Source of the DNA: a virus | Virus record (IMG/VR): IMGVR_UViG_3300023235_001181 | DNA length: 64,000 nt | Reading direction: 5' to 3' (one strand) | Shown here: positions 4,917 through 61,541 of the stretch, piece after piece | Layout: the number at the start of each line of letters is the position of its first letter | Numbering within the stretch: the first letter of the stretch is position 1 | Translations under genes and position numbers: made by a program | Notes under the pieces: generated by a model | Told to the model about the DNA's origin: nothing | Seen by the model: only the letters and a program-made list of their open reading frames with translations | The model's database searches: none

Positions 4917-4945
4917 ACGAGTTGAGGGCAGAGAGAGTCAGAGCC
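4917..4945 (-). promoter_or_regulatory. bipartite promoter-like motif (GGCTCTGACT-N16-CGTTG) upstream of 4395-4892
   Basis: minus-sense caaaaGGCTCTGACTctctctgccctcaactCGTTGgttgaGTAGCACGGAGaggaacATG. Confidence 0.5.
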
Positions 4946-4957
4946 TTTTGCAGAAAA

Positions 4958-5350
4958 TCAGTTGGACGTCGTTGCACTCACCGGGTCGGGTGCGGTCGCC
5001 GGGTGTACCGAACGGATCATGTCCGGGTAGAAGTCGTGCGTGGAGCCAGCCGGGTGCAGCTTCTTGGTGCCACGGTCCTCGAGCAGTTCCACCTTGACGC
5101 GCTTCTTGTTCACGGTGAGCACTCGGACACGGGTCTTCTGCCCGTGAGAGGTACCGATCATCAGCTCGTCGCCGGAGTTGATCTCAGCGAGGTTCACCGT
5201 GGGAGTTGCCTCCGCGCCGATGATGCCGGGGTGTCCCAAGGCGCGTAGCTTGCGGTCTGCCTTCTTGCAGATCTTCGCGAGCATGTCTTGGTCTTCGATG
5301 CCGCCGACGGCATACAGGATGCCTTCCAGAACCTTGTCCATTGTCTTCAT
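4958..5350 (-). CDS. hypothetical protein
   Basis: 130-aa ORF, K/R-rich centre. Confidence 0.45.
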   Translation of the reverse strand: MKTMDKVLEGILYAVGGIEDQDMLAKICKKADRKLRALGHPGIIGAEATPTVNLAEINSGDELMIGTSHGQKTRVRVLTVNKKRVKVELLEDRGTKKLHPAGSTHDFYPDMIRSVHPATAPDPVSATTSN

Positions 5351-5439
5351 CCTTTTCGGGGGGTTGAGGCATTGTGCCTCTGGTCATGTCCATCAACACT
5401 CACATGATGGCTGGAGTGTGAGTTCGAGTCTCTCGAAAC

Positions 5440-6987
5440 CTACGGAAGTCTGAGAATGTTGATGCCGTCGTCCGTGTGGCGCACCACCTCGTACCCGTGG
5501 CTGATGTAGTAGTCCTTCACCTTGCACAGGTCATGGGCAGCCACCGTGAGTCGCCTTGCAACAAAGGTCTCGGCTACGTGCTTGCCCACACCCATCCCAC
5601 GGTAACCAGGTAGCAGGTACGCGGAGTTCCAGTCCTCATACTGAGCCACGAGCCCGGCGATTCTGCCCCATGCGATCACGGGCGTCAGCTTGCTCTCGGC
5701 AAGGATCTCTTCCTGTCCTACGTCACGGATGTGCTGAGCCCATTCGAGCTTCACGTCTTCCCATTCCGAGCGCATGAACGCTACGTCACCATCACCGAAC
5801 CCGATGAGCGTGCCGTGGTTCACAAGGTCCAGGGTCCAGCTCTGGGAGAGGCGGTACGGTCCGAGGCAGTGCAAGATCTCCTGCGCCTCTTGCACCGTTC
5901 CGCACGGGTACGGGTAGACGGTCTTGGTGTGCGGTACGACGTAGCCACCGTGGAAGTGCAGCAGCGCCTTGAGTCCCTTCATGTCGTGATAAAGGCGCGC
6001 GTGTACCGAGCAGTCGATGGAAGGCTTGACAGTGCCATGAGCGCGCGTCAAACGATCAGAGATGTCAGCACTCGCAAAGATGAACTCGTCCGGCTTCACG
6101 TCACCCTTCTGCACACCGCGCGGGGTAGCCCAGAAGTGGGTGGGGATGGAGCTGATGAGCTGGGTCACGTTGCCGTCAGAGCTGTCAAGGAGGTTGGCCT
6201 CTTGAGCGAAGGCGAGCAGGGCTTGTGCCTCCTCCAAGGAGTCCACGAAGGTGTCCTTGGGGTCAACACCAGGGTAGAGCACGTCTTCGTCGTACAGCTC
6301 GGTCCTGCTCCACTGCACAGCTTGACGGTTGATGCAGAGGTCGACAATGGCTGCGGAAACATCCGTCTTGGAGCCTTCAAGCGGTATGGCCCCTCCCTCT
6401 GGGGTCACCGCGTAGCACGGATGCAGTCCCTTGTTCTCGGGGAGGCTGAGCTTGCTCCAATCGTTCGCGATGGTCAGGTTGATGCGACAGCTCTTCACCT
6501 GCGCCAGTGCCACGCTGATCAACTCATCGTCAGTCACGTCGCTCAGGAGCTTCCACCCTACGATGAAGGGACGGTTGGGCACCCACTCCCTCAGGTTGGC
6601 GAGGATCTTGGGCGTGCGCTTGAGGACGAGCGTCTGCTCGTCGTTCTTGGAGCGGATCTTCCCTTCCACGGGGACGGGAGCGTAGTCGCTGATGGCAGCG
6701 GGCATCAGGATGAAGTCGAAGTCACCCGTGTTTGCCAGGTCCTTCACTTGGTCGTAGAGCTCTTGGTACGTGCGGAACGTGTAGATGCCGCTCACGCCTC
6801 CGACGGTGTCCCCGTACATGCTCAAGGTGCGTTCAGCGGCGAGAAGCGTCACGTTGACACCCCTCGCCGCGAACAGATTGGCGACGGTACACCCGAACCG
6901 ACCCTTGGAGCGGTTGGTGATGACGCGGACGTCGTCGATGTCGACTTCCGTGCCTCCGGTCACGACAAGGGCTCTCAGTTCAGGCAT
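5440..6987 (-). CDS. multidomain enzyme: N-terminal CoaB/DFP-like (phosphopantothenate-cysteine ligase fold) domain + central unknown domain + C-terminal GNAT-like domain
   Basis: 515 aa; ITNRSKGRFGCTVANLFAARGVNVTLL matches CoaB ISNxSSGKMG...GA-VTL signature; C-terminal LLPGYRGMGVGKHV resembles GNAT motif A. Confidence 0.55.
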   Translation of the reverse strand: MPELRALVVTGGTEVDIDDVRVITNRSKGRFGCTVANLFAARGVNVTLLAAERTLSMYGDTVGGVSGIYTFRTYQELYDQVKDLANTGDFDFILMPAAISDYAPVPVEGKIRSKNDEQTLVLKRTPKILANLREWVPNRPFIVGWKLLSDVTDDELISVALAQVKSCRINLTIANDWSKLSLPENKGLHPCYAVTPEGGAIPLEGSKTDVSAAIVDLCINRQAVQWSRTELYDEDVLYPGVDPKDTFVDSLEEAQALLAFAQEANLLDSSDGNVTQLISSIPTHFWATPRGVQKGDVKPDEFIFASADISDRLTRAHGTVKPSIDCSVHARLYHDMKGLKALLHFHGGYVVPHTKTVYPYPCGTVQEAQEILHCLGPYRLSQSWTLDLVNHGTLIGFGDGDVAFMRSEWEDVKLEWAQHIRDVGQEEILAESKLTPVIAWGRIAGLVAQYEDWNSAYLLPGYRGMGVGKHVAETFVARRLTVAAHDLCKVKDYYISHGYEVVRHTDDGINILRLP

Positions 6988-7001
6988 GTCTCTCTCCGTG
7001 G

Positions 7002-7721
7002 CTACTCGCCGTCCATGATCATGTCGAGCCGTGCGTGTCCGGGCTCAGGCCAGTAGGCATCGACGCTCTCCCAGTCCGGGTAGTTCGTGTCGAGGTACTC
7101 CTTGCACTGCCCCTTCATCCAGTCGTTCGTGGTCTTCTCGCGCTGGTACGCGGGGTCGCCGTAGGTGACGGTCAGGGGGATGTCGGGAGGGCACTCTGCA
7201 CGGTTCACCGTGAGCAGCACCGTGTCACCGTCCACCACCTTGCAGGTGAGGTCGTCGCTGTAGTCGTAGTCGATGCTGTAGCGACGGCAGAGGTTTCCAC
7301 GGGCGTAGCGGTCGTAGGACGCTGCCTTGTAGAAGGTCGTGATGCGGGTGCGCCCGTCCTCGTCGACGATCTTGCCTGCTCGAGAGTCTTCTCCGCGCTC
7401 ACGCTTCCACCCCGGAGGGAGCTGCGCATCCTGGAAGATGGGGTCGCTGCCGGGGGACACCTTGATGCCCCACTTGGCGAGGGTCTTGAGTGCGTCGGCC
7501 CCACCGATGTCCACCGGGAGTTGAGTGGAGTTGAGGAACTCTCGGTTGCCTCGTGCTTCCTGAGCGAGGATGGCGTCCGAGCCCCTCCCGCCGATGAAGG
7601 TGTTGAGCATGGTCTCGCGGGCGAGCCGGGCTACTTCTTCCTTGGAGGTGGTGTCACCTACCTTGCGGTGTCCGGCCATCAGATCAGCCCCGCGTTGTTG
7701 AGCAACTCGTAGACGAGCCAC
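7002..7721 (-). CDS. hypothetical protein
   Basis: 239-aa ORF. Confidence 0.45.
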   Translation of the reverse strand: MARLRVAQQRGADLMAGHRKVGDTTSKEEVARLARETMLNTFIGGRGSDAILAQEARGNREFLNSTQLPVDIGGADALKTLAKWGIKVSPGSDPIFQDAQLPPGWKRERGEDSRAGKIVDEDGRTRITTFYKAASYDRYARGNLCRRYSIDYDYSDDLTCKVVDGDTVLLTVNRAECPPDIPLTVTYGDPAYQREKTTNDWMKGQCKEYLDTNYPDWESVDAYWPEPGHARLDMIMDGE

Positions 7722-7976: not shown

Positions 7977-8564
7977 CTATTCGAGGTCTTCCGCACAATG
8001 GTCACAAGTCCGCTCACCCTTGATGTCCTTGGAGCAGTTGCCGCACACGGGGTCACCACACCCATAGCAGGTGTAGTCAGCCGCTTCGGTACCGTCGATA
8101 ACTCCACCGCCGCTCATGTAGCCAGCAGGGGCCTCGCAGCCATAGTTCACCACGTTGCACGGGTCGCCCACGGGCTCGAAGTCGCCCTGAGCCTCACGCA
8201 TCTCCCGGAAGGAGTCGTACACGGGAGCGTCCATGTCGAGTTCGGAGGGTTTGTAGAGGCCGAGGCGCTCTGCGATCCGCATCATCTGGTTGGGCGCGTT
8301 GCTCTTCTCGAGAAGGATCATGGCACCGGCACAGTGCTGCGCGTTGGGGCCGTCCACCATGTTCGAGGAGCCGTCTTCGTCATCCTCGCCAGCGACGGTG
8401 GTCTTGTGGCAGGTGAATGAGCGCTGCTGCCCAATGAGCTCGGCCTCCATCTCCTGAACGCGTCCTACACGGAGGTAGGGCGTGACGTCAGTGCGGAAAG
8501 GGCAGTTACTGCACGGCTTCTTCAGGGAATATTCGCTCACGTAGCCTCCGTCATATCGTATCAA
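7977..8564 (-). CDS. Cys-rich hypothetical protein
   Basis: 195 aa; CSNCPF..CHK..HCAGA..CYGCGDPVCGNC..CDHC motifs (probable metal binding); TTG start. Confidence 0.45.
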   Translation of the reverse strand: MIRYDGGYVSEYSLKKPCSNCPFRTDVTPYLRVGRVQEMEAELIGQQRSFTCHKTTVAGEDDEDGSSNMVDGPNAQHCAGAMILLEKSNAPNQMMRIAERLGLYKPSELDMDAPVYDSFREMREAQGDFEPVGDPCNVVNYGCEAPAGYMSGGGVIDGTEAADYTCYGCGDPVCGNCSKDIKGERTCDHCAEDLE

Positions 8565-8591
8565 CGGAGGCTACGGGCAAATAGTCAGAGC

Positions 8592-9739: not shown

Positions 9740-9769
9740 AACGTAACGAACAGCTTGATAGTCAGAGTC
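9740..9769 (-). promoter_or_regulatory. bipartite promoter-like motif (CTCTGACT-N14-TACGTTG)
   Basis: minus-sense ggaCTCTGACTatcaagctgttcgtTACGTTGcctgaacaACGGAGacacacATG. Confidence 0.5.
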
Positions 9770-9830
9770 CGTCTCGGGTTTGACCGTGGCCGGGGCTACT
9801 CTTGTCACCGAACACTCACGGAGGTGCCCA

Positions 9831-10442
9831 ATGTCACGATACAACAAGGAAGCCTGGGATAAGCTGGTTGAGACCATGAAGGCCGACATCCCCGGCTTTG
9901 AAGTAGGCTACAAGGACGAGAGCAAGCTCCAGAAGGTGATCGCCAAGATCTCGTTCTGGAACAAGTACGAGGACTACATCACCACGATGTACCCGAAGGT
10001 CTACTTCCCCAACAGGGAGTACGTTGAGACGCATCTGCCCGTGCCCACTCTTGAGCACGAGTGGGTTCACCTCAAGGACCAGAAGACCTTCTTCGGGTTG
10101 CTGCCCAAGCTGCCCGCATGGCTCAACATGACGCTGTTCAGCTTGCTCTACATCTCGCCGCAGATCTTCGCGCTTGGTGCCGTGCTCGCCGTGTTCAGCC
10201 CTTGGTGGCTACTATGCCTGCTGTTCCTTGCGCCTCTGCCCGCTCCGGGCCGCGCATGGGCCGAGGTCCGTGCCTACCGCCGCAGCCTCGAGCACGGTTC
10301 GGACATCGAGCGTATCGCAGACGCGTACGTCGGTGCTGGCTACTACTTCATGTGGCCCTTCCGCAAGCACGTCCTGAAGTGGCTCGATGCCAAGCCTTCG
10401 CCCTACGTGCTGGAGATGGACACCTACATCGCTAAGGACTGA
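9831..10442 (+). CDS. membrane protein
   Basis: ORF 9780-10442, likely ATG at 9831 (cACGGAGGtgcccaATG); 2-3 TM segments in C-terminal half. Confidence 0.45.
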   Translation: MSRYNKEAWDKLVETMKADIPGFEVGYKDESKLQKVIAKISFWNKYEDYITTMYPKVYFPNREYVETHLPVPTLEHEWVHLKDQKTFFGLLPKLPAWLNMTLFSLLYISPQIFALGAVLAVFSPWWLLCLLFLAPLPAPGRAWAEVRAYRRSLEHGSDIERIADAYVGAGYYFMWPFRKHVLKWLDAKPSPYVLEMDTYIAKD

Positions 10443-16026: not shown

Positions 16027-16096
16027 GCAAGTTTCCTCTTGTCGGAGCAACGAGTGGTCGCCGTGTGTACTCAGACACCGAACCCAAGGAGGAAGC

Positions 16097-16321: not shown

Positions 16322-16641
16322 GAATCCCCCTGTTCGCCTTCCACACTCAGCCCGACTTCCCTCAACAGCAGCGCGATCTCGGCTACCCAGTGTTCGCGGC
16401 GGTTGTCCCCACGGACGTCGGCCTGGTTGTCGGACGTGGCTACCGCATCTACAAGGTGGGTGCGGGCAAGTTCCAGGGCACCTGGCAAGCCGTCAACTTT
16501 GTTGAGGGTGCCTGGCTCGAGGAGGGTGACGAGCTCAGCCTCGGGAAGGCCGTCTGGAACGATGACCGGGACGTGTGGACGTGTGAAGACGAGCCACCCG
16601 ACGTAGACCAACACCGCGCAGCAATGGACGCCTCCGAATGA
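16318..16641 (+). CDS. hypothetical protein
   Basis: ATG MRIPLF overlapping previous stop (ATGA); 107 aa. Confidence 0.4.
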   Translation: MRIPLFAFHTQPDFPQQQRDLGYPVFAAVVPTDVGLVVGRGYRIYKVGAGKFQGTWQAVNFVEGAWLEEGDELSLGKAVWNDDRDVWTCEDEPPDVDQHRAAMDASE

Positions 16642-17276: not shown

Positions 17277-17277
17277 C

Positions 17278-19872: not shown

Positions 19873-20098
19873 GCAGCCGCCTTTTCGTTGGTGCCAAAGC
19901 ACCGGGGTTTCCTCCTAAAACGCTGTCCGGCCCAGGTTCAGGTCCCAGAAATGGAGGAAAAGGCAGCGGGTGGAAAGTCAGACCCACAGCGACGAAACCT
20001 CACCGGAAAACCCATGAGGTTTGTACATCACATGCCGAAGCACACGCTTTCCGGCACCTATACAGATGTATGAATATGGAACGGCCTGCGAGCGGATG

Positions 20099-20244: not shown

Positions 20245-20249
20245 CCGGT

Positions 20250-20438: not shown

Positions 20439-20541
20439 GCTGTGCTCCCGTTCTAATGGGTCAACGTAGCCACGCGCTTCTATCTCAGATGGTATGTGTA
20501 GATGCCTGCCCTCCCTTTCAGTATAGGGAGGTGATCTGTTG

Positions 20542-21649: not shown

Positions 21650-21679
21650 AACGCTCCGAGCTGGTCGGAAGTTAGAGAG
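21650..21679 (-). promoter_or_regulatory. bipartite promoter-like motif variant (CTCTAACT-N16-CGTTAG) just upstream of phosphatase ATG
   Basis: minus-sense CTCTCTAACTtccgaccagctcggagCGTTagagacacATG. Confidence 0.4.
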
Positions 21680-25206: not shown

Positions 25207-25535
25207 TCGTCAGGCACGGTGCCCAACTGTTCCGTCCAATCAACGCCTCGAGCTATGCAGACGTCAGAGTAGTTCTTGAGGTAGTAGGGAGCCATCAGGG
25301 GGCTGATCCACGGAAGGTTGTCGGCCACGTCTTTCGCGTCCTTCATGCCCATCCCCAGGTCCCGCATGGTCCGGATGACTTCCATCCGGTCACCGCCTGT
25401 GATGGTGACCGTTCCACGGTCGTCAGGGACCATCTTCTGAACCCAGCCACGCTGGAGCACCTCGTTGCAGAGGTCGGTCATCTCCTCGAAATCGAGGGTG
25501 GCAAGGTAGTCTGCTACTTCTTCACGGGTCGGCAT
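25164..25535 (-). CDS. ribosomal protein L7/L12 C-terminal-domain-like protein (paralog 2)
   Basis: MPTREEVADYL...RMEVIRTMRDLGMGMKDAKDVADNLP resembles bL12 CTD ([24 protein letters not shown]); paralog of upstream gene. Confidence 0.5.
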   Translation of the reverse strand: MPTREEVADYLATLDFEEMTDLCNEVLQRGWVQKMVPDDRGTVTITGGDRMEVIRTMRDLGMGMKDAKDVADNLPWISPLMAPYYLKNYSDVCIARGVDWTEQLGTVPDEWDRPPTINPQPMG

Positions 25536-26495: not shown

Positions 26496-26526
26496 CAACG
26501 CCTTTCGTAGCGTGAAAGTCAGAGCC
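26496..26526 (-). promoter_or_regulatory. bipartite promoter-like motif (GGCTCTGACT-N16-GCGTTG); TGA of upstream gene lies inside CTCTGA
   Basis: minus-sense cgaaaGGCTCTGACTttcacgctacgaaaggCGTTGaaggaGTAGCACGGAGcacgaaTTG. Confidence 0.5.
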
Positions 26527-27512: not shown

Positions 27513-27542
27513 GTGAGCTCAACGTGCCTACTTGCACGGAAC

Positions 27543-27968
27543 TCAGGCAGCCATTTCATCTCTTGCTTCGGCGTAGTGGAGCGGGCACTCAACCACGCCA
27601 TACACGGGGTCGCACCGGACGTAGCCCATGTCGGAGGTCGGGTTGATGGTCAGCGACACGCCGAACAGGGTGCTTGCCGCCGCGTCCGTGAACTCTACGA
27701 ACCGGTTCTCGTCAGAGTTGACGAGATCGCGATACATGCGGGAGCTGAGCTCCACGGAGTCCACACGGAGGTCCCACCGCTCAATCTGAGCGAATGCGGT
27801 AGCCATCACCTCAACGGTCAGAACATCAAAGACCATCGGGTCAGGACGGCGCTCCAACTCCCGAATCAGGGCGCGGCGGGTGTCGCTCATTGGAGGCTGG
27901 TTCAGGTATACGGCAGGGGAAGGGACCGTCTGCCGTACTTGAACATCTATGCTGACTACAGAGTACAT
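27543..27968 (-). CDS. hypothetical protein
   Basis: 141-aa ORF. Confidence 0.45.
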   Translation of the reverse strand: MYSVVSIDVQVRQTVPSPAVYLNQPPMSDTRRALIRELERRPDPMVFDVLTVEVMATAFAQIERWDLRVDSVELSSRMYRDLVNSDENRFVEFTDAAASTLFGVSLTINPTSDMGYVRCDPVYGVVECPLHYAEARDEMAA

Positions 27969-30730: not shown

Positions 30731-30770
30731 AACGGGGAGCGGCACTCAGAAGTTAGAGGCCGTTCACGAA
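30731..30770 (-). promoter_or_regulatory. bipartite promoter-like motif variant (CCTCTAACT-N15-CCGTTAG) with long 5' leader
   Basis: in 180-bp intergenic gap upstream of 29961-30599; overlaps small hairpin CCCCtctaacGGGG. Confidence 0.4.
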
Positions 30771-31277: not shown

Positions 31278-31550
31278 TCAGGCTGAAGGTTGCGTGCCGC
31301 CCGGCTTTTCTTGCTCCACCAGCTTGTAGTGCTTCATGTTCGTCATGAAGTTGTTGTAGAGAGCCCAGTTGTCCTGCTTGGACTTGATAAGGGTTCGCTC
31401 TTTCATCCGCTTGATCAAACCGGCAATCTCGGGCCTTGTGAGTGGCCGGTCGAAGTGCGTCTGCGCCGCCATGACGTTTCCGAAGATGATGGCGTTGATT
31501 GAGCGTGCTGATTTGAACGGCGACGGGCCGCTGATCCAGAAGGTTTTCAT
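31278..31550 (-). CDS. hypothetical protein
   Basis: 90-aa ORF. Confidence 0.4.
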   Translation of the reverse strand: MKTFWISGPSPFKSARSINAIIFGNVMAAQTHFDRPLTRPEIAGLIKRMKERTLIKSKQDNWALYNNFMTNMKHYKLVEQEKPGGTQPSA

Positions 31551-31628: not shown

Positions 31629-33380
31629 TCAGGCTGCAGCCGCCGCCACACACTGCTCGGGGTACCACTTGCGGAGCGTGTTGAGGAACTGGTAGCTGAG
31701 TTGGTCAGCGGGGCGTCGGCTCTTCGCCATGCCGGAGGCAACCACCGCAGCGGCAATCCGCTCCACGTCGGCTTCCGTCCACGCGCCTTGGGTCACGAGG
31801 GTCACCCAGATGCTGTGGTTGATGCCGCGCCTGTAGGGGTTCTCACCCTTCAGGAGGTAGGAGGCAGAGGCCGGGTCAACAGCCGCAACGGGCGGGGCAG
31901 CAACCGGCTTGTCGCCGTCCACTTCCTTGTAGAGGCCCGCGTAGTCCTTGAGGTTGTTGTAGAACTGGTACCCGATCTGGTCAGCGGGTCGCCGGGTCTT
32001 GATCGTGCCCGCGTCAATCAACTGCTGAGTCACCGCGTCCACGTCGTCCCGTGTCCACGTACCCAGCGCAACCAACGCAGCCCAGATGCTGAAGTTGATG
32101 CCCCGTCGGTACGGGCTCGCTCCACAGAAGGCGTAGCGCACGGGCGTCGGCACGTTCACCGCGAGGCCTGTGATCACGGTCGCACGGGTCACCGCTGCTG
32201 CAACCACGTCACCCGGCATCACCGGGTTCTCTTCGGCACGCTCGATGGCCTTGTAGCCACGGGCGGTCTCGATGAACCCCCAGGCAATGCCGTCAGCCGG
32301 GCGTCGGGATTTGATCGCGCCGCTGTCGAGCAGTGCGTCCACCGTGGTCAGGAGGTCGTTGAAGTCGAAGGTGCCACGGGTCACGAGGGCGTCGTAGATG
32401 GGGTGGCTACCTGCCCAATGCTTGTACGGGTTCGGGATGCCTACGAAGCGGTAGCGTGTGCGCGCAGCGTGCTGAACTGCGCGGCCCCCTCGGGTATTAC
32501 CGTTGGGGGCCGCTGTCTCTCCGATTGCTTCCTTCTCAAGTGCCACTGCCACGAAGGTTCCAGCTACCTCTTCGGGGCTGCGGCGGGAGGCGAACTTGCC
32601 TTGATCCATCAGTCGCCCGGTGATCACCACAATCTCCCGCATCGTCACTGGGTTCCCGATGGCGTTCAGGGTGTCCCACAACACGTAGCACGAGCCTCGC
32701 TGGAAGGGGTTGTCGCCCTTCACGAGGTACACCGGGCCGACGGAGGTGCTTGTGCGCTTCCGCTTGCTCGGCTTGGCTCCGTCCCTGGTCACCGCGAGGT
32801 ACTCGGTGATGAGGGCGTGGAGGCTCTTCACGCGGTAGTGGATGGTCTCCTTGCGCTTGCCGATGATCCGGCTGATGTCTGCCGGGCGGTAGCCCATGGT
32901 CCGCAGGATGAAGGTGGGGAGGAACGCGGGCTTGCGCTCCGCGATGTACCGAATGAGATCCGATTCCACCACCTCTGCCGGAATGCTGAGCTCCGAGAGG
33001 TTGCTGGTCTGCTGCAACCGGTCGAGGTCCACCGTGCCGCGAGCGGGCTCGGAGTCGTCCGAGGGCACCGAGAGGCTCATGGCGTTGGTGTTGGCGTCCC
33101 GGTTGTCCTTCTTCCAGCCGTTCACGAGGCAGTTCCGGATGGTCGTACCGAGGTACGAACGGAACTGACGCGGAGTCATCAGCCCCGCATCTACCTTCTC
33201 CTTCACACGGGGGAAGAAGTTGGACGCCATGCAGTGAATGATGATGTCCTGGAACTTGTCGTCGATGTCCTCTTCGGGAACCTTCTGTCCACGCAGTCCA
33301 CCGATGATGTACTTGCGGAATGCCATGAGCTGGTTGACGTCCGTCGGGACGAAGTCCGTCTCGGTGTGTGTGCGTGCCAT
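31629..33380 (-). CDS. ECF-sigma-factor-like N-terminal domain (sigma2/sigma4) fused to four ~65-aa tandem repeats
   Basis: 583 aa; aa 70-95 FRSYLGTTIRNCLVNGWKK resembles ECF region 2.2-2.4; aa 150-195 LPTFILRTMGYRPADISRIIGKRKETIHYRVKSLHALITEYL resembles region 4 HTH; repeats NPFQRGSCYVLW.., NPYKHWAGSHPIY.., SPYRRGINFSIW.., NPYRRGINHSIW.. each ending in SRRPAD/TRRPAD. Confidence 0.55.
   Translation of the reverse strand: MARTHTETDFVPTDVNQLMAFRKYIIGGLRGQKVPEEDIDDKFQDIIIHCMASNFFPRVKEKVDAGLMTPRQFRSYLGTTIRNCLVNGWKKDNRDANTNAMSLSVPSDDSEPARGTVDLDRLQQTSNLSELSIPAEVVESDLIRYIAERKPAFLPTFILRTMGYRPADISRIIGKRKETIHYRVKSLHALITEYLAVTRDGAKPSKRKRTSTSVGPVYLVKGDNPFQRGSCYVLWDTLNAIGNPVTMREIVVITGRLMDQGKFASRRSPEEVAGTFVAVALEKEAIGETAAPNGNTRGGRAVQHAARTRYRFVGIPNPYKHWAGSHPIYDALVTRGTFDFNDLLTTVDALLDSGAIKSRRPADGIAWGFIETARGYKAIERAEENPVMPGDVVAAAVTRATVITGLAVNVPTPVRYAFCGASPYRRGINFSIWAALVALGTWTRDDVDAVTQQLIDAGTIKTRRPADQIGYQFYNNLKDYAGLYKEVDGDKPVAAPPVAAVDPASASYLLKGENPYRRGINHSIWVTLVTQGAWTEADVERIAAAVVASGMAKSRRPADQLSYQFLNTLRKWYPEQCVAAAAA
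31632..32735 (-). repeat. four in-frame ~195-bp tandem repeats within the sigma-like gene
   Basis: protein-level repeats (consensus NPYRRGxxxSIW..L...G.W...D.....L...G..K.RRPAD...YQF). Confidence 0.55.
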
Positions 33381-33416: not shown

Positions 33417-33447
33417 AACGAACTGAGCCTACGAGAAACTCAGAGCC
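33417..33447 (-). promoter_or_regulatory. bipartite promoter-like motif (GGCTCTGAGT-N16-TCGTTA) upstream of sigma-like gene
   Basis: minus-sense aataaaGGCTCTGAGTttctcgtaggctcagtTCGTTAcgctg...ATG. Confidence 0.45.
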
Positions 33448-34687: not shown

Positions 34688-34717
34688 AACGTACCCAAGG
34701 GGGAGGTACTCAGAGGC
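34688..34717 (-). promoter_or_regulatory. bipartite promoter-like motif (GCCTCTGAGT-N14-TACGTTA)
   Basis: minus-sense gtgaaaaGCCTCTGAGTacctcccccttgggTACGTTatcatgaggtaACGGAGGtgccATG; stop TGA of 34710-34925 inside CTCTGA. Confidence 0.5.
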
Positions 34718-46926: not shown

Positions 46927-46956
46927 AACGCCACGAAGGCCCTGAAAGTCAGATAC
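46927..46956 (-). promoter_or_regulatory. bipartite promoter-like motif variant (TATCTGACT-N16-CGTTG)
   Basis: minus-sense gtATCTGACTttcagggccttcgtggCGTTGtatagctgtgcaAGGAGGccacaATG. Confidence 0.4.
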
Positions 46957-47476: not shown

Positions 47477-47650
47477 TGAGCGCTCCTATACTCGGACAAC
47501 GTAGCGACAGGGGGAGATCTCAGAGAGGAACTCGCCCATTTTCACGCCTTGTCGCGGGTCACCTTCTTGTAGATGAGGCGGGCCATGGCTCCTCCGACAC
47601 CTACGTCCTTGATTGGAGGGGCCTTGAGCGGCTTGGTGTTGGCGGGGATC

Positions 47651-48735: not shown

Positions 48736-48792
48736 AGTGTCCTCCAGAGTCCTTCCAACACTTTTCGTCCTTGGAAGTTAGAGGGCTTCCAA

Positions 48793-49205: not shown

Positions 49206-49235
49206 AACGCCCGCTGCCCCCACGAACTCAGAGAG
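49206..49235 (-). promoter_or_regulatory. bipartite promoter-like motif (CTCTGAGT-N16-GCGTTA)
   Basis: minus-sense cctCTCTGAGTtcgtgggggcagcggGCGTTAggtatg...ACGGAGcaccacATG. Confidence 0.45.
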
Positions 49236-49239: not shown

Positions 49240-49452
49240 CTAAGCCGAGCCGTACTTGTACGACTTGAACATCTGGTACTCGGTGTCCTCAATGAAGCCA
49301 AGCGCCCCGAGGGCCTTCTTGTCCTCGTCACTCACCGAGTCGTACTCCACGCCCACCTGCATCACGTCGTGTTCACAGTGAGTGGGCCACTTCGTGTCGG
49401 TGTACTTCCCAAAGATGGTGAAGGCAGCGATCAGTTCTTCGCATCCGGTCAT
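49240..49452 (-). CDS. small hypothetical protein
   Basis: 70 aa. Confidence 0.35.
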   Translation of the reverse strand: MTGCEELIAAFTIFGKYTDTKWPTHCEHDVMQVGVEYDSVSDEDKKALGALGFIEDTEYQMFKSYKYGSA

Positions 49453-50270
49453 GGCGAGATCTCCTCAGTCACTCGGTTCACCTCTGCTACGAGCAGGTCA
49501 GTGTCACAGGCGTAGAGGCCTGCGGAGCTGAAGCTGCCCACTTCGAGGATGTGGTAGTTGCCCGCCTTGGTCTGACACATGTCGAGCACCCAAACGTGGT
49601 CAGGCTCGTACTTCTGCTCCAAGCAGTAGTCCACGAACTCCTGGCCACGTCGTAGGGCGTCAGCCGTGGCAAGCTCGCGGGGGTGGTTGTACCCGCGTCG
49701 ATACAGAGAGCCGGTGACAACGCGCCCCTGGGCCACGAAGAAACGCCACTCCACCTCTACGTTGATGGGTCGAGCGACAACCACCATCGTTTCGGGCTTC
49801 ACCACGTCGTCGTAGAAGCCCATCAGCTCGATGTCCCTGTCCCACGTCTCCCTCTTCAACAACTGTCCGCTGAAGAGCTTCCGGTTGCTGTCAGGGCGCA
49901 CGAACAGGCACCCGTCCTCGCCCAACGCGGCGAAGAGCATCTCCTTGTGTGCAGTCAGGAGGCCGAACGGCATGAAGATGTGGTCGCGGTTGAGCAGACG
50001 GTCCCTGATGCGCGGGTAGTAGAAGGAGCACATGAGCTGGTCGGCGTTCTCGTAGACCGTCCATCCTTGCTCCCGCGCCATTTCCACTGCCTGAAGAGAG
50101 CCGTGGAACACCATCGGGTAGACGCCGTTCGTGGCGGCGAGCATCTCGAACCCTCCGTCCATCGGCATGAACTTGGGAGCGTAAACACTCCACCCCAATG
50201 CCTCAGCGGAGGCAGCGAGCTTGCTCTCGTACTCAGGCTCGATGCCCGTTTCGATCACCCAACCGGGCAT
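49449..50270 (-). CDS. hypothetical protein, possibly ATP-grasp-fold
   Basis: 273 aa; alternating beta-like segments (LFVRPDS, VVVARPINVEVEWRFFV, WVLDMCQTKAGNYHILEV) weakly resemble ATP-grasp central/C domains. Confidence 0.3.
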   Translation of the reverse strand: MPGWVIETGIEPEYESKLAASAEALGWSVYAPKFMPMDGGFEMLAATNGVYPMVFHGSLQAVEMAREQGWTVYENADQLMCSFYYPRIRDRLLNRDHIFMPFGLLTAHKEMLFAALGEDGCLFVRPDSNRKLFSGQLLKRETWDRDIELMGFYDDVVKPETMVVVARPINVEVEWRFFVAQGRVVTGSLYRRGYNHPRELATADALRRGQEFVDYCLEQKYEPDHVWVLDMCQTKAGNYHILEVGSFSSAGLYACDTDLLVAEVNRVTEEISP

Positions 50271-52544: not shown

Positions 52545-54038
52545 TCACCTCATTGTCGGGAACAGAATCACGTCCCGAATTGATTGTGTGTCTGTCAACA
52601 GCATCACGAGCCGGTCGATGCCAATCCCCTCACCGGAGGTGGGAGGCATACCGAAGCTCAACGCGTCGATGTAGTCCTGGTCGAAGTACATGGCTTCATC
52701 GTCCCCGCGTGCCTTGGCAGCAGCCTGGGCCTGGAAACGAGCAGCCTGCTCAACGGGGTCGTTCAGCTCTTGGAAGCCGTTGGCGATTTCCATACCGGCG
52801 ATGTAGAGCTCGAAGCGGTCTGCTACCTCTGGGTCATCAGCAGATGCTCGAGAGAGTGGGCTGATGTCCAAGGGGAATCCGGTCACGAAGGTCGGCTGGA
52901 TCAGCTTGTCCTCAACGTACTCGTCGAAGTAGAGCTGGAACCACCGCCCGATGGTCCGGGGGAGCTTGGTAGCGTCCGGGTGGTCCTGTACCCACCTCGA
53001 GCGCATCTCGGGCATGGAGAAGGGGTCGTTGATGCCCGCGTGCTCCATGATCAGGTCGGCCATGCTCACGCGCCTGAAGGTGGTCAGGTCAAGCTCGTGC
53101 CCGTCGTAGGTGCAGACGTCCATCGGAAGGAACTCGCCAACCCGGCAGGCTTCCTCGTAGATGACGCGGTTGTTGGCACCACGGATGATGGCTTCGGTGG
53201 TGTCCATCAGGTCAGCCGGTGTGGCGTGGGCCTGATAGAACTCCAGCATGGTGAACTCGGGGTTGTGCGTCCCGTCCACTCCCTCGTTCCGGAAGTTGCG
53301 GTTCAGCTCGAACACTCGCTCGTAGCCACCCACGATGAGCCTCTTGAGGTAGAGCTCAGGGGCGATGCGTAGGTAGAGGTCCTTGTCGAGAGCGTTGTGG
53401 TGCGTCACGAATGGTCGTGCGTTCGCACCGCCTGGGAGCGTCTGCATCATCGGCGTCTCCACCTCCATGAACCGATGGTCTTCAAAGTACCTCCGGATGT
53501 AGGATACGATGGTGCTGCGCGCACGGAACCGGTCGCGAGTGTCTTGGCTCACGATGAGGTCGAGGTACCGCTGACGGCGCTGCTGCTCCACGTCGGTGAA
53601 CCCCGCGTGCTTGTCCGGCAGGCTCTTGATGCACTTGGAGTAGAGCGCAAGGCTGTCCACCTTGAGGCTCAGGTCACCGCGTCGGGTACGGATGAGCTGC
53701 GCTTCTGCGTACACCCAGTCGCCGATGTCCAACTTCTTCCACACGTCGGCGTACATGACGGGGCCGATGCCCGCACGGCGCACGAACAACTGCATCCGGC
53801 TTTCGCCATCCTCGATGAAGGCGAAGCCAATCTTGCCCATCTCGTTCTTCTGGACGATGCGTCCGGCCACACGGTAGACGGTGGTCTGCGCCTCCAACTC
53901 CTCCGCGCTCAGATCAGCACCGATGCGCAAGATCTCGAGCAGCCGGTGGCTGAGGTCCTTGGAGACGGGATAGGGATCTACGCCTTCAGCGCGTAGTGCG
54001 TCCAACTTTTCCAGCCGTGCTGGTTCAAATTCGCTCAC
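52545..54038 (-). CDS. lysS: lysyl-tRNA synthetase, class II
   Basis: 497 aa; motif 2 FRNEG..HNPEFTMLEFY, motif 3 GEGIGIDRLVMLLTDTQSIRDVILFPTMR, N-terminal OB anticodon-binding domain. Confidence 0.85.
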   Translation of the reverse strand: MSEFEPARLEKLDALRAEGVDPYPVSKDLSHRLLEILRIGADLSAEELEAQTTVYRVAGRIVQKNEMGKIGFAFIEDGESRMQLFVRRAGIGPVMYADVWKKLDIGDWVYAEAQLIRTRRGDLSLKVDSLALYSKCIKSLPDKHAGFTDVEQQRRQRYLDLIVSQDTRDRFRARSTIVSYIRRYFEDHRFMEVETPMMQTLPGGANARPFVTHHNALDKDLYLRIAPELYLKRLIVGGYERVFELNRNFRNEGVDGTHNPEFTMLEFYQAHATPADLMDTTEAIIRGANNRVIYEEACRVGEFLPMDVCTYDGHELDLTTFRRVSMADLIMEHAGINDPFSMPEMRSRWVQDHPDATKLPRTIGRWFQLYFDEYVEDKLIQPTFVTGFPLDISPLSRASADDPEVADRFELYIAGMEIANGFQELNDPVEQAARFQAQAAAKARGDDEAMYFDQDYIDALSFGMPPTSGEGIGIDRLVMLLTDTQSIRDVILFPTMR

Positions 54039-54164: not shown

Positions 54165-55736
54165 TTAGGCTGCCGCAGCCACCGCTTCCGCGCGGGCTCG
54201 GGTACACGTCTCGATCAAGCTCAGGGTGATGCCGTCCACGGCGGGTCGGTGTTCGAAGCCGTCACGTCGCGCCGAGTCACCGGGTCCGTACACACGCCAG
54301 CCCTTCGGGAGGTTGCCGTACTGACACACCATCGTAGCGGGTCCGTGTGAGGGGTGAGCAGCGTTCTCGCGCACGGCGAGTACCGGGATGCCGGGGAGGC
54401 TCTGCTTCCCGCTCCAACCCTCTTCCAGCTCATCGCCGAACTTCATGGTCGGTCCGTACTTGGACGTCCAGGCGAGCTTGTAAACCATGCTCACCAAGCC
54501 ACGTCGGTAGCCGGTGGGCTCCGGGCGGTCGATGAAGTAGCCGCCCGCGCCAAACAGCGTCACCTCTTCGGGGTAGTCAACCTCGATGCGGAGCGCCTCG
54601 TACCGTGCAACGTCCTTGTCGTCGATGCCGTCTTCAAATACCCACGGGCGGGGTCGGATGCCGCGTGCCTTGATCTCGCTCACGATGTAGCGGAACTGCT
54701 CCTCAAGGGAGCCGCTGTCGGGTCGCATCCCGTCGTTCCGGTCCGGAAACTCTTCCATGAGCTTCAGGGCGGTCGGGATGCCCACCTTCATCGTGTCGTT
54801 GGTGTCGAGCAGCATGATCACGAGGGGCATTGCGGCGATGTGTGCGCGGAAGGCGCGTTCGTCGTTGCCACCGTGGCGCATGATGCCCTCATGGCCCAGC
54901 GTGCCAACTGCCTTGATGTCCAGCACGTAGGCACCGTAGGCGTTGGAGGTCAGCGTGAAGCCGAGGTCCTTCAGAGCCTTGAGCGCGATGAGGTGCTGCT
55001 CCATGCAGGTTGCGGCGCGGAGGCCAACCTCGAAGATGCGGTTCGGGCTCACGCCGGAGGCCAGCATCTTGATGCCCTGCAACTGCACCGCGTTGTAGTA
55101 GCTGAGCTCGTCCACGGTGATGCCGTTTTCGATGTCCCGCAGCTCCTGTCGGAAGTCGGCATCGCCGAAGTCCCTGCCCTTGTGGGCACCGAGGATCGCC
55201 TCCATGGTGAGCTCCTTCTGGCGCTCACAGGTCACGGTGCGGATGGTCTCGAGGAAGGCGGGCATCGTGTCGCCCTCGCGGGCCTTGATGTAGGCGGTCG
55301 CTACCTGCATCTGGTAGCTGAAGCGTCCCGAAACCAACGGCTCGAGCCAGCTTGCGATGGCCTGAGGAGCTCGCACGGTAGCCACGGGCTCACGGGGAGC
55401 AGCGTACTCGCCAAAGGGTGTCGCGTAGAGCACCTCAAGGCTGGAGCCGTCCACGGAGTCCCACAGCATCTTCTCGGTCACGTTGAAGCCGAAGTGCTGC
55501 AGTAGCGCGCACTCTTCCTTCACGGTCGCTGAGGTGGGGTTGGGGATCATCTCGCGGATCGCCGTCTCGGGATCCACAGGCATGAACATGAGCCCGCCGC
55601 GTCGGAAGCTCAGATAGAACACTTCCTTCTCTTCGGGGCGTCCGCCAGCCATCATGGGCCACTTGTAGCCGTCCGATCCGAGGGTGCTTTCGCGCCAGGA
55701 TCGCTTGCCTGCAAGTAGTTGTCGTAGAATGCTCAT
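54165..55736 (-). CDS. nadV: nicotinamide phosphoribosyltransferase family protein (NadV/Nampt-like; alternatively a Namat-type transferase)
   Basis: 523 aa; GSDGYKWPM (cf. TDSYKVTH), GIRPDSGSLEE (cf. RPDSGNP), FGAGGYF (cf. FGSGGGL). Confidence 0.75.
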   Translation of the reverse strand: MSILRQLLAGKRSWRESTLGSDGYKWPMMAGGRPEEKEVFYLSFRRGGLMFMPVDPETAIREMIPNPTSATVKEECALLQHFGFNVTEKMLWDSVDGSSLEVLYATPFGEYAAPREPVATVRAPQAIASWLEPLVSGRFSYQMQVATAYIKAREGDTMPAFLETIRTVTCERQKELTMEAILGAHKGRDFGDADFRQELRDIENGITVDELSYYNAVQLQGIKMLASGVSPNRIFEVGLRAATCMEQHLIALKALKDLGFTLTSNAYGAYVLDIKAVGTLGHEGIMRHGGNDERAFRAHIAAMPLVIMLLDTNDTMKVGIPTALKLMEEFPDRNDGMRPDSGSLEEQFRYIVSEIKARGIRPRPWVFEDGIDDKDVARYEALRIEVDYPEEVTLFGAGGYFIDRPEPTGYRRGLVSMVYKLAWTSKYGPTMKFGDELEEGWSGKQSLPGIPVLAVRENAAHPSHGPATMVCQYGNLPKGWRVYGPGDSARRDGFEHRPAVDGITLSLIETCTRARAEAVAAAA

Positions 55737-55764: not shown

Positions 55765-55794
55765 AACGACGGATACCCCGAGGAAGTTAGAGAG
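55765..55794 (-). promoter_or_regulatory. bipartite promoter-like motif variant (CTCTCTAACT-N16-CGTTGA) upstream of nadV-like gene
   Basis: minus-sense gttCTCTCTAACTtcctcggggtatccgtCGTTGAtggag...gaggaattATG. Confidence 0.4.
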
Positions 55795-58858: not shown

Positions 58859-58887
58859 AACGCATCACGCGGGGGAGCACTCAGAGG
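58859..58887 (-). promoter_or_regulatory. bipartite promoter-like motif (CCTCTGAGT-N14-TGCGTTG) overlapping a 10-bp-stem hairpin GTGCTCCCCC/GGGGGAGCAC
   Basis: minus-sense gagaaaaCCTCTGAGTgctcccccgcgtgaTGCGTTGggggagcac; lies between clpP stop and next gene. Confidence 0.45.
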
Positions 58888-58893: not shown

Positions 58894-59583
58894 CTACTCG
58901 TCGGCCTCGGCTGCAGCGGCAGCAGCTTCCCGCGCGGTCTTGTTGGCGCGGTCGCAGCCTTCGATCTTGTCGATGAGCCCGTACTCCAGAGCCTCCTCGG
59001 CGGTCATCCAGTTGTCGAGCTGCATGTCGGCTTCGAGCTTCTCGAAGCTCTGGCCGCAGTTCTCGGCCAGCAGCCGGGTCAGCTTCTGGTGGAGGCGGTC
59101 TGTGTGCGCCATCGCCGCCTTCATGTCCTTGTACTTGCCCTGGTTGCCCGAGCTCAGCTCGTGGATCATGATCTCGCTGTTGGGGAGCGCCGAGCGGTTG
59201 CCCGCCGAGCCCGCACTGAGCAGGAAGCTACCCATGGAAGCCGCCATACCCACGACGGTCGTGTGGACGGGGCTGTCGATGAGCTGCATGGTGTCGTAGA
59301 GCGCGAGGCCGTCGATCACCGAGCCACCGGGGCTGTTGATGTACATCATGATGGGCTTGCCGGGAGCGTCCGCCTCGAGGAAGAGGAGCTGCCCAATGGC
59401 GATGCGCATCGAAACGCTGTCCACCTGGGTGCCGACGTAGATGATGCGGTCCCGCATGAGCCGGGAGAACAGGTCGAAACTCCGCTCCATTCGGCCATCG
59501 GATTCCACCACGACGGGGATGTTGTAGTTGGCAGGCAGTCCGCCGAGGGAGGCGAGTACTTCGAGCTGTTCACGAGTGGGCAT
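58894..59583 (-). CDS. clpP: ATP-dependent Clp protease proteolytic subunit ClpP (S14)
   Basis: YINSPGGSV, GMAASMGSFLL (Ser), MIHEL (His) catalytic motifs; likely ATG MPTREQL preceded by ACGGAGCACCAA; ORF track extends to TTG at 59631. Confidence 0.8.
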   Translation of the reverse strand: MPTREQLEVLASLGGLPANYNIPVVVESDGRMERSFDLFSRLMRDRIIYVGTQVDSVSMRIAIGQLLFLEADAPGKPIMMYINSPGGSVIDGLALYDTMQLIDSPVHTTVVGMAASMGSFLLSAGSAGNRSALPNSEIMIHELSSGNQGKYKDMKAAMAHTDRLHQKLTRLLAENCGQSFEKLEADMQLDNWMTAEEALEYGLIDKIEGCDRANKTAREAAAAAAEADE

Positions 59584-59637: not shown

Positions 59638-59668
59638 AACGAGTTCAACCGGCGTCGAACTCAGAGCG
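59638..59668 (-). promoter_or_regulatory. bipartite promoter-like motif (CGCTCTGAGT-N16-TCGTTG) with GAGTTC/GAACTC inverted repeat
   Basis: minus-sense agaaacgCTCTGAGTtcgacgccggttgaacTCGTTGcac...ACGGAGcaccaaATG. Confidence 0.45.
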
Positions 59669-60402: not shown

Positions 60403-60404
60403 GA

Positions 60405-61064
60405 TCAGGTCTCCTTGGAGAAGCGGTAGGTTGTTCGTCGGCCTTTGCTCTGCTCAGTCACCGGTTCGATGACGCCCAGCGCAGTAGCCTTCTTTCTCAA
60501 GTTCGAGCTGTCTTCCGCCTTGCCCGTGATGTGTCCCATCAGGTCGCGGTAGTCGCTCATGTTGAAGTTCATGTAGAGGAAGCCCGCAACCACGTCCGGG
60601 TCGTAGCGGTGCTTCTTGAGGAATTCCTGAGCGAACTCAAGGATGCCCCGATGGTCGAATGCAAGGTCCATGTTCAGCGCAGCGGCGAGTGGCGTCCACC
60701 CGTCGTGTCCCCTGAATACGTGGGAGATCGGGCAGATGTGCGCCACGCTGAGCACCTTGTCGCGGGTGTCCCGGTCGAAGCCGTCAAAGACGTGCATCTG
60801 TACCGGTTGAACCTGCGCGTGTGCCTCGGGCACGTAGCGTCGTAGGGAGCGGCGTACCGCATCAAAGAGGAGTTCGTTGGGCTTCACAAACGCGCCGGGG
60901 AGCGCCAACTGGCCCATCGCCGGAGGGTTGCGCCGCCTGATGAGCTTCACGCGGAGCTCAGGGTCTACCACTACAACGTCCACCGCCAGAGGCGGGTTCT
61001 TGTACTGCGAACGGTCGTAGTCCGCAAAGTACTCTTCGTCGGTGATGTGGGTTTCGTCGGGCAC
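60405..61064 (-). CDS. NrtR-like protein: degenerate Nudix domain + C-terminal winged-HTH
   Basis: 219 aa; Nudix-like GQLALPGAFVKPNELLFDAVRRSLRRYV with degenerate REx2EE; C-terminal NLRKKATALGVIEPV...GRRTTYRF matches NrtR wHTH pattern; 3-nt gap to PncA-like gene. Confidence 0.5.
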   Translation of the reverse strand: MPDETHITDEEYFADYDRSQYKNPPLAVDVVVVDPELRVKLIRRRNPPAMGQLALPGAFVKPNELLFDAVRRSLRRYVPEAHAQVQPVQMHVFDGFDRDTRDKVLSVAHICPISHVFRGHDGWTPLAAALNMDLAFDHRGILEFAQEFLKKHRYDPDVVAGFLYMNFNMSDYRDLMGHITGKAEDSSNLRKKATALGVIEPVTEQSKGRRTTYRFSKET

Positions 61065-61154
61065 GCTGGTTATTCCTACTTGTTACTTGGTACGTTTTAC
61101 CTTGTTGTCAGTATAACGCCAGCGATGTGCAGAAAGTTAGACTTTCATTTCGAA

Positions 61155-61490
61155 CTATTCGCCATCCAATTCGCTCTTGAGGTAGGAGATGGTGCGGTCG
61201 ATGTCCGGGTCGGCCAGGTAGAACCGAGCCGTGTGGTAGGGAGTGGCGTCATGGTGGCGATACATCACCACGAACCAGCCTTGTGCCTCGAAATACGTCC
61301 GGAAGCCCTCATGGTCAGGGGGCCGCAGCGACACGTCTCGGTCGCTGTACCCTCGCTCTCGGAGTCGGGCCACCCAACTGGGGTAGCGAGAGAATCCCTG
61401 GATAGTGCTCTGCGCGGCTTGGTGAGCCTCTACGGTCAGTCCCACGATCTCCGGAATGAACGGGATCGGTACCTCACAGGTGTCAAGCAT
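61155..61490 (-). CDS. hypothetical protein
   Basis: likely ATG MLDTCEV at 61490 (ORF track extends into upstream gene). Confidence 0.4.
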   Translation of the reverse strand: MLDTCEVPIPFIPEIVGLTVEAHQAAQSTIQGFSRYPSWVARLRERGYSDRDVSLRPPDHEGFRTYFEAQGWFVVMYRHHDATPYHTARFYLADPDIDRTISYLKSELDGE

Positions 61491-61511
61491 GTACTCCCCT
61501 TCTAAGCACTC

Positions 61512-61541
61512 AACGTGGTCAGGTACGGAATACTCAGAGGT
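61512..61541 (-). promoter_or_regulatory. bipartite promoter-like motif (CCTCTGAGT-N14-CACGTTGA); stop of upstream gene inside CTCTGA
   Basis: minus-sense gaaataCCTCTGAGTattccgtacctgacCACGTTGAgtgcttagaaggggagtacATG. Confidence 0.45.

Follow-up and report, generated by a model that had tools for sequence, protein, structure and literature searches.

We analysed a 64,000-nt stretch of viral DNA (IMG/VR record IMGVR_UViG_3300023235_001181), here called the window, in which a bipartite motif recurs in the short gaps between minus-strand genes and in which a divergent protein resembling an extracytoplasmic function (ECF) sigma factor is encoded at 31629–33380. The window has 60% GC (guanine plus cytosine), rising to near 0.8 at third codon positions, and holds ~95 genes, nearly all of them on the minus strand, with 6.9% of its length non-coding; the gene map was verified by comparison with database annotations of genes on sister contigs. 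A contig of 257,533 bp is on record with the identical sigma-like protein, and Pfam and PHROGs matches identified genes typical of jumbo phages in the window, namely a class II aminoacyl-tRNA synthetase, a nicotinate phosphoribosyltransferase (NAPRTase)-like enzyme, phosphoribosyl pyrophosphate (PRPP) synthase, polynucleotide kinase, ClpP, an AAA ATPase, a NUDIX protein and phosphatases.

An initial annotation of this DNA had reported at least 14 gap copies of the motif and had read them as a family of ECF-like promoters. All 14 are present at the genes it named, and seven more were found (Table 1). In a strict form, CTCTGAST-N13-17-SCGTTR, the motif matched four times against 0.03 expected. 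Reduced to its invariant letters, TCTNA-N18-CGTT (the 7-mer TCTNANN, a 16-nt spacer and CGTT), it had 17 matches on the minus strand and none on the plus strand, whereas dinucleotide-preserving shuffles gave an expectation of 0.99 per strand (Poisson P ~1e-15). Allowing a 17-nt spacer yielded two minus-strand copies and one plus-strand copy, and spacers of 13–15 and 18–20 nt showed no excess over expectation. The position weight matrix scan that the initial annotation had proposed, run on the window, returned 20–21 minus-strand sites upstream of gene starts against 0–1 on the plus strand, and added two one-mismatch copies, at 27547 (CCTGAGT) and at 48782 (TGTT and a 15-nt spacer), for a total of 21 sites; at the threshold that admits these two, the plus strand held none. 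The occurrence of the motif is real and far above chance.

As first described, all sites are confined to the coding strand and almost all are intergenic: 20 of the 21 fall within the non-coding 6.9% of the window (P ~1e-22), so that, within the window, the motif is not equally common inside coding sequence (1/21). All 21 precede a gene start, at distances of 8–131 nt with a mode of 21–24, and 11 of them stand exactly 21–24 nt before the start codon. Two of the copies described earlier are present in a form that departs from the description. The one ahead of the gene starting at 48735 is the TGTT variant with the short spacer, and the one ascribed to the gene starting at 30599 lies 131 nt upstream of it, with a 7-codon open reading frame (ORF) in between. 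In that interval (30680–30757, minus strand) the motif is followed by a Shine-Dalgarno-like AAGAGG and the short ORF (MTRIAET), and the unit behind 30757 would have either a ~120-nt leader or a leader peptide ahead of gene 30599.

The left block of the motif reads (A-rich)-s-C-TCT-R-A-S-T and in the right block CGTT precedes a purine; the spacer that separates them is not conserved in sequence and is fixed in length at 16 (rarely 17) nt. This geometry bears out the ECF-like -35/-10 spacing originally proposed, matching that of the published GGAACT-N16-CGTT promoters (PMC10012870). Most window copies have GAG or GAC at the core, and AAC is found in five of the 21 window sites (the TCTAAC copies) and in most copies of relatives. 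CGT(T), the counterpart of the CGT of ECF -10 elements, is invariant. A third element emerged downstream: of 20 window sites, 15 have A (P = 5e-7) and four have G at the ninth base after CGTT, and 17 have T or C at the eighth. This pyrimidine–purine pair, which was not part of the search pattern, resembles a transcription start in its fixed distance from the -10 block.

The common layout is CGTT-N9-11-ACGGAG-N5-6-start, which would give leaders of ~13–16 nt holding only a Shine-Dalgarno sequence; the distance of 9–11 nt replaces the value of about 20 nt given in the initial annotation. At the genes starting at 21641 and 27512, CGTT stands exactly 8 nt before the ATG and the A at position nine is the A of the start codon. 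For gene 21641 there is an in-frame TAG 9 nt upstream of the start, so that no earlier ORF start is possible, and both genes are predicted to have leaderless mRNAs. The earlier remark that the TGA of an upstream gene can lie inside the CTCTGA core holds at four sites (Table 1).

Table 1. Motif sites and sigma-locus genes in the window. Sites are named in the text by their higher coordinate; remarks "added" mark sites absent from the initial annotation.
Coordinates	Strand	Feature	Distance to start and gene	Remarks
61512..61538	-	TCTGAGT-N16-CGTT	21 nt before ATG 61490 (111-aa gene)	core TGA = preceding stop
61115..61141	-	TCTAACT-N16-CGTT	50 nt before GTG 61064 (NUDIX / NrtR-like, 219 aa)	added
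59638..59665	-	TCTGAGT-N17-CGTT	54 nt before ATG 59583 (ClpP)	spacer forms 9-10 bp hairpin
58859..58885	-	TCTGAGT-N16-CGTT	40 nt before ATG 58818 (DUF3228)	within strong hairpin, z = -5.4
55765..55791	-	TCTAACT-N16-CGTT	28 nt before ATG 55736 (NAPRTase-like)	
49206..49232	-	TCTGAGT-N16-CGTT	35 nt before ATG 49170 (125 aa)	
48757..48782	-	TCTAACT-N15-TGTT	21 nt before ATG 48735 (217 aa)	weak variant
47498..47524	-	TCTGAGA-N16-CGTT	21 nt before ATG 47476 (169 aa)	added
46927..46953	-	TCTGACT-N16-CGTT	24 nt before ATG 46902 (RlaP-like nucleotidyltransferase)	
34688..34714	-	TCTGAGT-N16-CGTT	22 nt before ATG 34665 (DUF1848)	core TGA = preceding stop; L001 orthologue also has site
33417..33444	-	TCTGAGT-N17-CGTT	36 nt before ATG of sigma-like gene	predicted autoregulatory promoter
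30731..30757	-	TCTAACT-N16-CGTT	131 nt before long gene start 30599	7-codon ORF next
27521..27547	-	CCTGAGT-N16-CGTT	8 nt before ATG 27512	one mismatch; leaderless type; core TGA = preceding stop; added
26497..26523	-	TCTGACT-N16-CGTT	23 nt before TTG 26473 (81 aa)	core TGA = preceding stop
25242..25268	-	TCTGACG-N16-CGTT	35 nt before GTG 25206	sole intragenic copy, 3' end of gene 25164-25535; added
21650..21676	-	TCTAACT-N16-CGTT	8 nt before ATG 21641 (Metallophos phosphoesterase)	leaderless type; element shared by L001, L005, L006 orthologues
20463..20489	-	TCTGAGA-N16-CGTT	24 nt before ATG 20438 (62 aa)	added
16049..16075	-	TCTGAGT-N16-CGTT	22 nt before ATG 16026 (histidine phosphatase)	added
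9740..9766	-	TCTGACT-N16-CGTT	21 nt before ATG 9718 (64 aa)	
8563..8589	-	TCTGACT-N16-CGTT	22 nt before GTG 8540 (DUF6283-like)	12-bp hairpin of -10 region with Shine-Dalgarno; added
4916..4942	-	TCTGACT-N16-CGTT	23 nt before ATG 4892 (165 aa)	
31629..33380	-	sigma-like protein, 583 aa		predicted sigma2-like fold, linker, sigma4-like fold, then winged-helix-like repeats
31278..31550	-	90-aa gene, free-standing repeat copy		directly downstream of sigma-like gene; conserved in relatives

Homologues of the sigma-like protein, at 43–52% identity, were found only in metagenomic contigs. The related loci differ widely in base composition, with 39% GC in L001–L004 and L008, 47% in L009, 51% in L005, 59% in L006 and L007, and 60–61% in L010 and L011. 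In relatives of 39%, 51%, 59% and 60% GC, the minimal pattern occurred four to five times on the coding strand of each 12–22 kb locus, against 0.05–0.5 expected, and the opposite strand held no copies at spacer 16. These copies were intergenic with one exception, and 14 of 19 had A at position nine. Six were of the CGTT-N8/9-ATG type with no Shine-Dalgarno sequence, and CGTT-N8-ATG with the position-nine A as the A of the start codon recurred at L005 17705, L006 9558 and L007 864 and 2193. The motif precedes Metallophos orthologues in the window, L001, L005 and L006, where the proteins are 42–53% identical and the flanking DNA cannot be aligned. The preservation of both half-sites and of their exact spacing over a 20-percentage-point shift in base composition is strong evidence of a function at the DNA level.

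The claim that the sigma-like gene itself carries the motif extended to every lineage examined, at the level of the gene or its operon. The motif stands ahead of the gene in the window (33444), L005 (9942) and L006 (1252), ahead of a DUF1848-81aa-sigma operon in L001 (8837), and as one-mismatch copies ahead of the gene in L009 and L011. The sister contig L012 contributed two more copies just outside the window.

The description of the 31629–33380 product as ECF-sigma-like is upheld by predicted sigma2 and sigma4 folds and by a sequence bridge to the Pfam families Sigma70_r2 and Sigma70_r4. The direct sequence matches are weak and agree with one another: the protein matched PHROG 1740, "RNA polymerase sigma factor" (E = 8e-5), and four of five family members matched nearly the whole of the sigma70-ECF model TIGR02937 (E = 0.003–0.02). 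The structural evidence is stronger. An AlphaFold model contains a four-helix domain at residues 15–92, a disordered linker at 92–132 and a second four-helix domain at 135–199, and its top Foldseek matches were almost all ECF sigmas (among them M. tuberculosis SigH and SigL, E. coli sigmaE, CnrH and AlgU), together with phiEco32 gp36. Alignment to E. coli RpoE with hhalign was collinear over 135 columns (E = 0.027) and paired the core-binding and -10-recognition regions (regions 2.1–2.4) and the 4.2 helix-turn-helix. Searched against 1.84 billion protein representatives, a profile of the N-terminal domain retrieved only 19 clusters; among the distant ones, P0018, P0020, P0021 and P0022 score above the Pfam thresholds for Sigma70_r2 or Sigma70_r4_2, which ties the protein to the sigma-70 family by a transitive link in sequence.

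The architecture is that of ECF sigmas, with sigma2 and sigma4 only, no sigma3 or sigma1.1, and a linker of fewer than 50 residues. Conservation within the family peaks in the predicted -35 recognition helix, GK(R/K)KETIHYR, and this invariance fits that of TCT.A across lineages. We found no match to the protein by tblastn against 50,697 GenBank phage records, phiEco32 gp36 included, no match to the family alignment in IMG/VR viral contigs, and no relative of the family in the genomes of 185,579 bacterial and archaeal species.

Beyond the two sigma-like domains, the C-terminal ~370 aa (from ~215 to 583) consist of four winged-helix-like repeats of ~90 aa each, with the consensus Y..KG.NPYRRG...W..L...G.W...D.......G..KSRRPADQ..YQF (window positions 31629–32738) and no match in a Pfam scan; relatives have two to four copies. 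A gene for a free-standing copy of the repeat follows the sigma gene in every lineage (L001 11810–12094, L005 11227–11541 and L006 2749–3024, in addition to the window), and its product may be a partner or regulator of the sigma-like protein. No anti-sigma domain was recognisable beside the sigma-like gene. A 159-aa ORF at 31114–31593 is a shadow frame (third-codon-position GC 0.47).

Taken together, the sequence evidence supports the promoter-family interpretation with ECF-like geometry. We consider it probable, at roughly three chances in four, that an uncultured jumbo phage uses the motif as ~21 coding-strand promoters, which are recognised by its own distant ECF-type sigma acting with the host core polymerase; that transcription initiates at the sites, that the sigma-like protein is their reader and that host polymerase is used are all points that we infer. 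The sites have the layout of sigma-70-family promoters, with two blocks at a fixed spacing (16 or 17 nt, within the 16–18 nt usual for that family), on the transcribed strand and upstream of genes. With respect to ECF membership, the domain architecture and in-silico autoregulation agree, the curated sequence thresholds are not reached, and AAC at -35 is present in part. Under this reading, the sigma-like protein would bind the host core RNA polymerase, with its sigma4 helix-turn-helix reading TCT.A and its sigma2 domain reading CGTT, and transcription would begin at the ninth base after CGTT, usually an A. The promoters would drive short units of auxiliary genes, including those for nicotinamide adenine dinucleotide (NAD) and nucleotide metabolism, ClpP, phosphatases and many unknowns. 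Site 33444 would let the sigma amplify itself in a positive feedback, and the first sigma molecules would have to come from another promoter or source.

More tentatively, and with a distinctly lower probability, the protein may represent an undescribed sigma family confined to one clade of uncultured jumbo phages, with an ECF-like core and two to four winged-helix repeats, in which the repeats and their free-standing paralogue form a new control module. Such a locus would be a self-contained, orthogonal sigma/promoter pair able to work across hosts of very different GC. Such a module might, for example, be a switch acting in cis or in trans in place of an anti-sigma, or might add contacts to the A-rich DNA upstream of the -35.

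Several observations weigh against the assignment of these promoters to a phage ECF-type sigma. The protein scores below every curated family threshold (15.6 bits against a cut-off of 42.9 for TIGR02937), has no Pfam match, and found no sigma in profile searches of PDB sequences with either full-length or N-terminal alignments. Its AlphaFold model was built from only 8 sequences and has a mean predicted local distance difference test score (pLDDT) of 69 and a predicted template modelling score (pTM) of 0.27. Canonical ECF sites have a GG that is missing from the -35 core here (CTGAGT/CTAACT), and an autoregulated sigma needs a primer promoter, of which none was convincingly identified. Hairpins overlap several sites and leave room for an additional role at the RNA level. 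Finally, coverage amounted to the 64 kb plus ~17 kb of flanks, about a third of the 257-kb genome, and every related locus was found through the sigma-like gene, with no negative control of phages without that gene.

The best-surviving alternative is that the sites are promoters read by a host ECF sigma of the sigmaE/sigmaH/EcfG kind, such that the phage hijacks a host stress regulon and its own protein does something else. CGTT, and AACT-N16-CGTT in the TCTAACT copies, are identical to the host ECF consensus (PMC10012870, PMC8103513), and the sigma assignment of the phage protein lies under the curated thresholds. Yet every copy has CT where GGAAC has GG, and most window copies have G rather than A at the third position, whereas C. 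glutamicum sigmaE requires GGAAC and sigmaH requires GGAAN (PMC10012870). TCT.A-N18-CGTT is also kept in phages of 39–61% GC that probably have different hosts and that all encode the near-invariant helix-turn-helix protein, and the position of the motif ahead of the phage sigma gene in each lineage examined is the usual signature of a cognate sigma. We therefore consider a host reader unlikely.

Still less probable is that the sites serve another phage transcription machine encoded outside the window, whether a multisubunit or single-subunit polymerase or a sigma-like specificity subunit such as gp226 in AR9. A bipartite -35/-10 with a 16–17-nt spacer is the signature of a sigma-70-family holoenzyme, whereas promoters of phage polymerases are single blocks, and the sigma-encoding jumbo phages surveyed so far have no polymerase of their own (PMC7824862). 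Pfam and PHROGs scans of the larger window genes gave no polymerase subunit, and neither did the Pfam annotation precomputed for the flanking loci. What speaks for such a machine is that only about a third of the 257-kb genome is visible and that some jumbo phages do use their own polymerases (PMC7824862, PMC9209446).

We give slightly less weight again to the motif being an operator for a phage repressor or activator, an idea prompted by the winged-helix-type proteins encoded in the window, for instance the NrtR-like protein or the repeats of the sigma-like protein. In sequence the half-sites have nothing in common and form neither palindromes nor direct repeats, they keep a fixed distance to the start codon (8 or 21–24 nt) and to a +1-like pyrimidine–purine step, and these gaps contain no other promoter signal for an operator to regulate.

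Folding around the motif sites was somewhat better than in shuffles, with a mean z of -1.35 compared with +0.25 in coding controls and five strong hairpins, in which the registers differ and different parts of the motif take part. The hairpins noted earlier at 58859–58887 and 59638–59668 are real (z = -5.4 and -2.5). Least probable of all is that the motif acts primarily in RNA, as a site of RNase processing, as an attenuating or terminating hairpin, or in anti-Shine-Dalgarno control over translation of the gene behind it: CUCUG or CCUCCGU can indeed pair with the CGGAG Shine-Dalgarno sequence at 8589, 4942, 34714 and 26523, but we rejected a conserved hairpin or anti-Shine-Dalgarno element because the registers are mixed and the cores of relatives (TCTAAC, TCTTA) cannot pair with GGAG, and in addition the spacer is unconserved with no covarying arms, several sites precede genes that have no Shine-Dalgarno sequence, terminator-like sites are not enriched, and Rfam gave no match. 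Single hairpins may nevertheless contribute some regulation. At 8540–8589 (minus strand), the -10 region and the Shine-Dalgarno sequence of gene 8540 form the two sides of a 12-bp hairpin (CGTAGCCTCCGT / ACGGAGGCTACG); initiation at the 8589 promoter would yield an RNA lacking the 5′ arm, with its ribosome site exposed, whereas in RNA read through from upstream that site would be occluded. Three further sites, 4892–4942, 34665–34714 and 26473–26523, have weaker predicted CUCUG:CGGAG pairings.

The extended Shine-Dalgarno sequence ACGGAG, singled out in the initial annotation, proved to be an ordinary GGAG with only a mild preference of context: ACGGAG-N6-start is indeed favoured (12 v 4 between strands), and ACGGAG overall shows no strand bias (37 v 34). 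Of the recurring Shine-Dalgarno/start string said to occur three times, GTAGCACGGAG occurs twice, and it is ACGGAGCAC[CG]A[AC] that occurs three times. Minus-strand genes (e.g. 54050, 50282 and 29207) preferentially have (CT)ACGGAG 6 nt before the start; the AC adds no complementarity to the standard 16S 3′ end. The 17 gaps without the motif shared no second motif, only the Shine-Dalgarno context CTACGGAG.

In a scan of 60 kb, sigma-70-type promoter matches and intrinsic terminators were at or below shuffle expectation. Two weak sigma-70-like matches, TTGTGA-N15-TACAAT upstream of the sigma gene's motif (33525–33499, minus strand) and TTCGAC-N15-TATAGT upstream of the plus-strand cluster 2299–4123 (2229–2255, plus strand), have a short 15-nt spacer and failed the scan criteria; they are candidate host-dependent early promoters.

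That cluster and two others on the plus strand (9780–10442 and 16638–17685) break up the minus-strand array. None of the three has a copy of the motif on its own strand, and other means of transcription are therefore needed for them. An unusually long non-coding gap of 347 nt at 19903–20249 (minus strand) contains two strong hairpins, AGAAGCCGCTCCG...CGGAGCGGCTTCT and GACCTCTG...CAGAGGTC, and no tRNA, Rfam match or motif copy; tRNA and Rfam scans of the window as a whole also gave no match.

The auxiliary metabolism genes, all on the minus strand, encode PRPP synthase (44715–45701), the NAPRTase-like enzyme (54165–55736), the NUDIX protein with an NrtR-type winged helix (60405–61064), the class II aminoacyl-tRNA synthetase, of the Asp/Asn/Lys type (52545–54038), and ClpP (58894–59583); a motif copy stands directly ahead of three of these five (NAPRTase-like, NUDIX/NrtR-like and ClpP). 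As to the identity of the phage, megablast of 20 kb against the 50,697 GenBank phage records gave no match. Its ClpP is only ~55% identical to those of Clostridia and is uninformative on the host, and gene 49449–50270 has a distant jumbo-phage homologue, with matches in Caulobacter and Rhizobium phages at 25–30% identity, that does not place the phage. We considered the moraphage lineage (PMC12619734) and rejected it because moraphages have no aminoacyl-tRNA synthetases.

The analysis joins a very divergent new sigma family to its likely DNA target, and sigma/promoter pairs orthogonal to host sigmas are wanted for synthetic circuits. It also proposes a function for a protein family that is unannotated in current databases, and yields a directly testable transcription map for an uncultured 257-kb phage, with ~21 predicted promoters and their predicted +1 positions in 64 kb, leaderless genes included. 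The half-sites kept from 39% to 61% GC also form a natural data set for the recognition code between ECF sigmas and promoters.

Among known systems, the closest likeness is to ECF promoters of bacteria, namely those of sigmaH/sigmaE in Corynebacterium and Mycobacterium and of EcfG in alphaproteobacteria. The sigmaH/sigmaE promoters of Corynebacterium glutamicum read GGAACT-N16-CGTT, and some of their transcripts are leaderless (PMC10012870); classic ECF traits are AAC at -35, CGT at -10, a two-domain sigma and autoregulation (PMC8103513). The phage motif has the same bipartite spacing and -10 CGTT, its TCTAACT copies share AACT-N16-CGTT exactly, and also common to both are an A-rich stretch upstream of the -35, a promoter at the sigma gene itself and some (here predicted) leaderless targets. 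In contrast, the phage -35 core starts with CT instead of GG and mostly reads TGAGT/TGACT, the elements are phage-borne and dense (~one per 3 kb) ahead of single genes or short operons, and no anti-sigma gene is recognisable by the sigma-like gene. In this last respect the protein recalls ECF41, ECF42 and ECF238/CorE, which have the same sigma2-linker-sigma4 core with an extra C-terminal domain and no adjacent classical anti-sigma, as is often the case for ECFs with C-terminal extensions (PMC8103513). Their extensions are SnoaL-like, TPR or Cys-rich, whereas that of the phage protein consists of two to four tandem winged-helix-like repeats; the phage locus adds a free-standing repeat copy, and the family is found only in phage-like metagenomic contigs.

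The nearest phage parallel is phiEco32 gp36, which acts with gp79 and is likewise a highly divergent two-domain phage sigma that turns host core polymerase to phage promoters, a role that is here predicted. It was among the structural matches of the sigma-like protein (9m7y_F), with which it shares the fold, and its promoters are defined mainly by AATGTA at -11.5 (PMC12276001). The two differ in having no detectable sequence similarity and in their promoter motifs, both half-sites being strongly conserved here. The protein from the window further has a 380-aa C-terminal extension, and no gp79-like partner was identified.

Minimal sigmas of the gp55 type recognise one -10-like element, TATAAATA, and no -35, in contrast to the full bipartite promoter and two-domain sigma of the system proposed here. 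T4 gp55/gp33 and the group 2 jumbo-phage sigmas likewise recruit the host polymerase in phages that have none of their own, and surveys of jumbo phages describe gp55-type minimal and RpoD-like sigmas and no ECF-like sigma with winged-helix repeats (PMC7824862). The redirection of host polymerase by a phage sigma is well established, and a phage-encoded alternative sigma with its own promoters is a known arrangement; what would be new is an undescribed sigma family with an unusual architecture and a new -35 sequence, a finding that extends known biology and overturns nothing.

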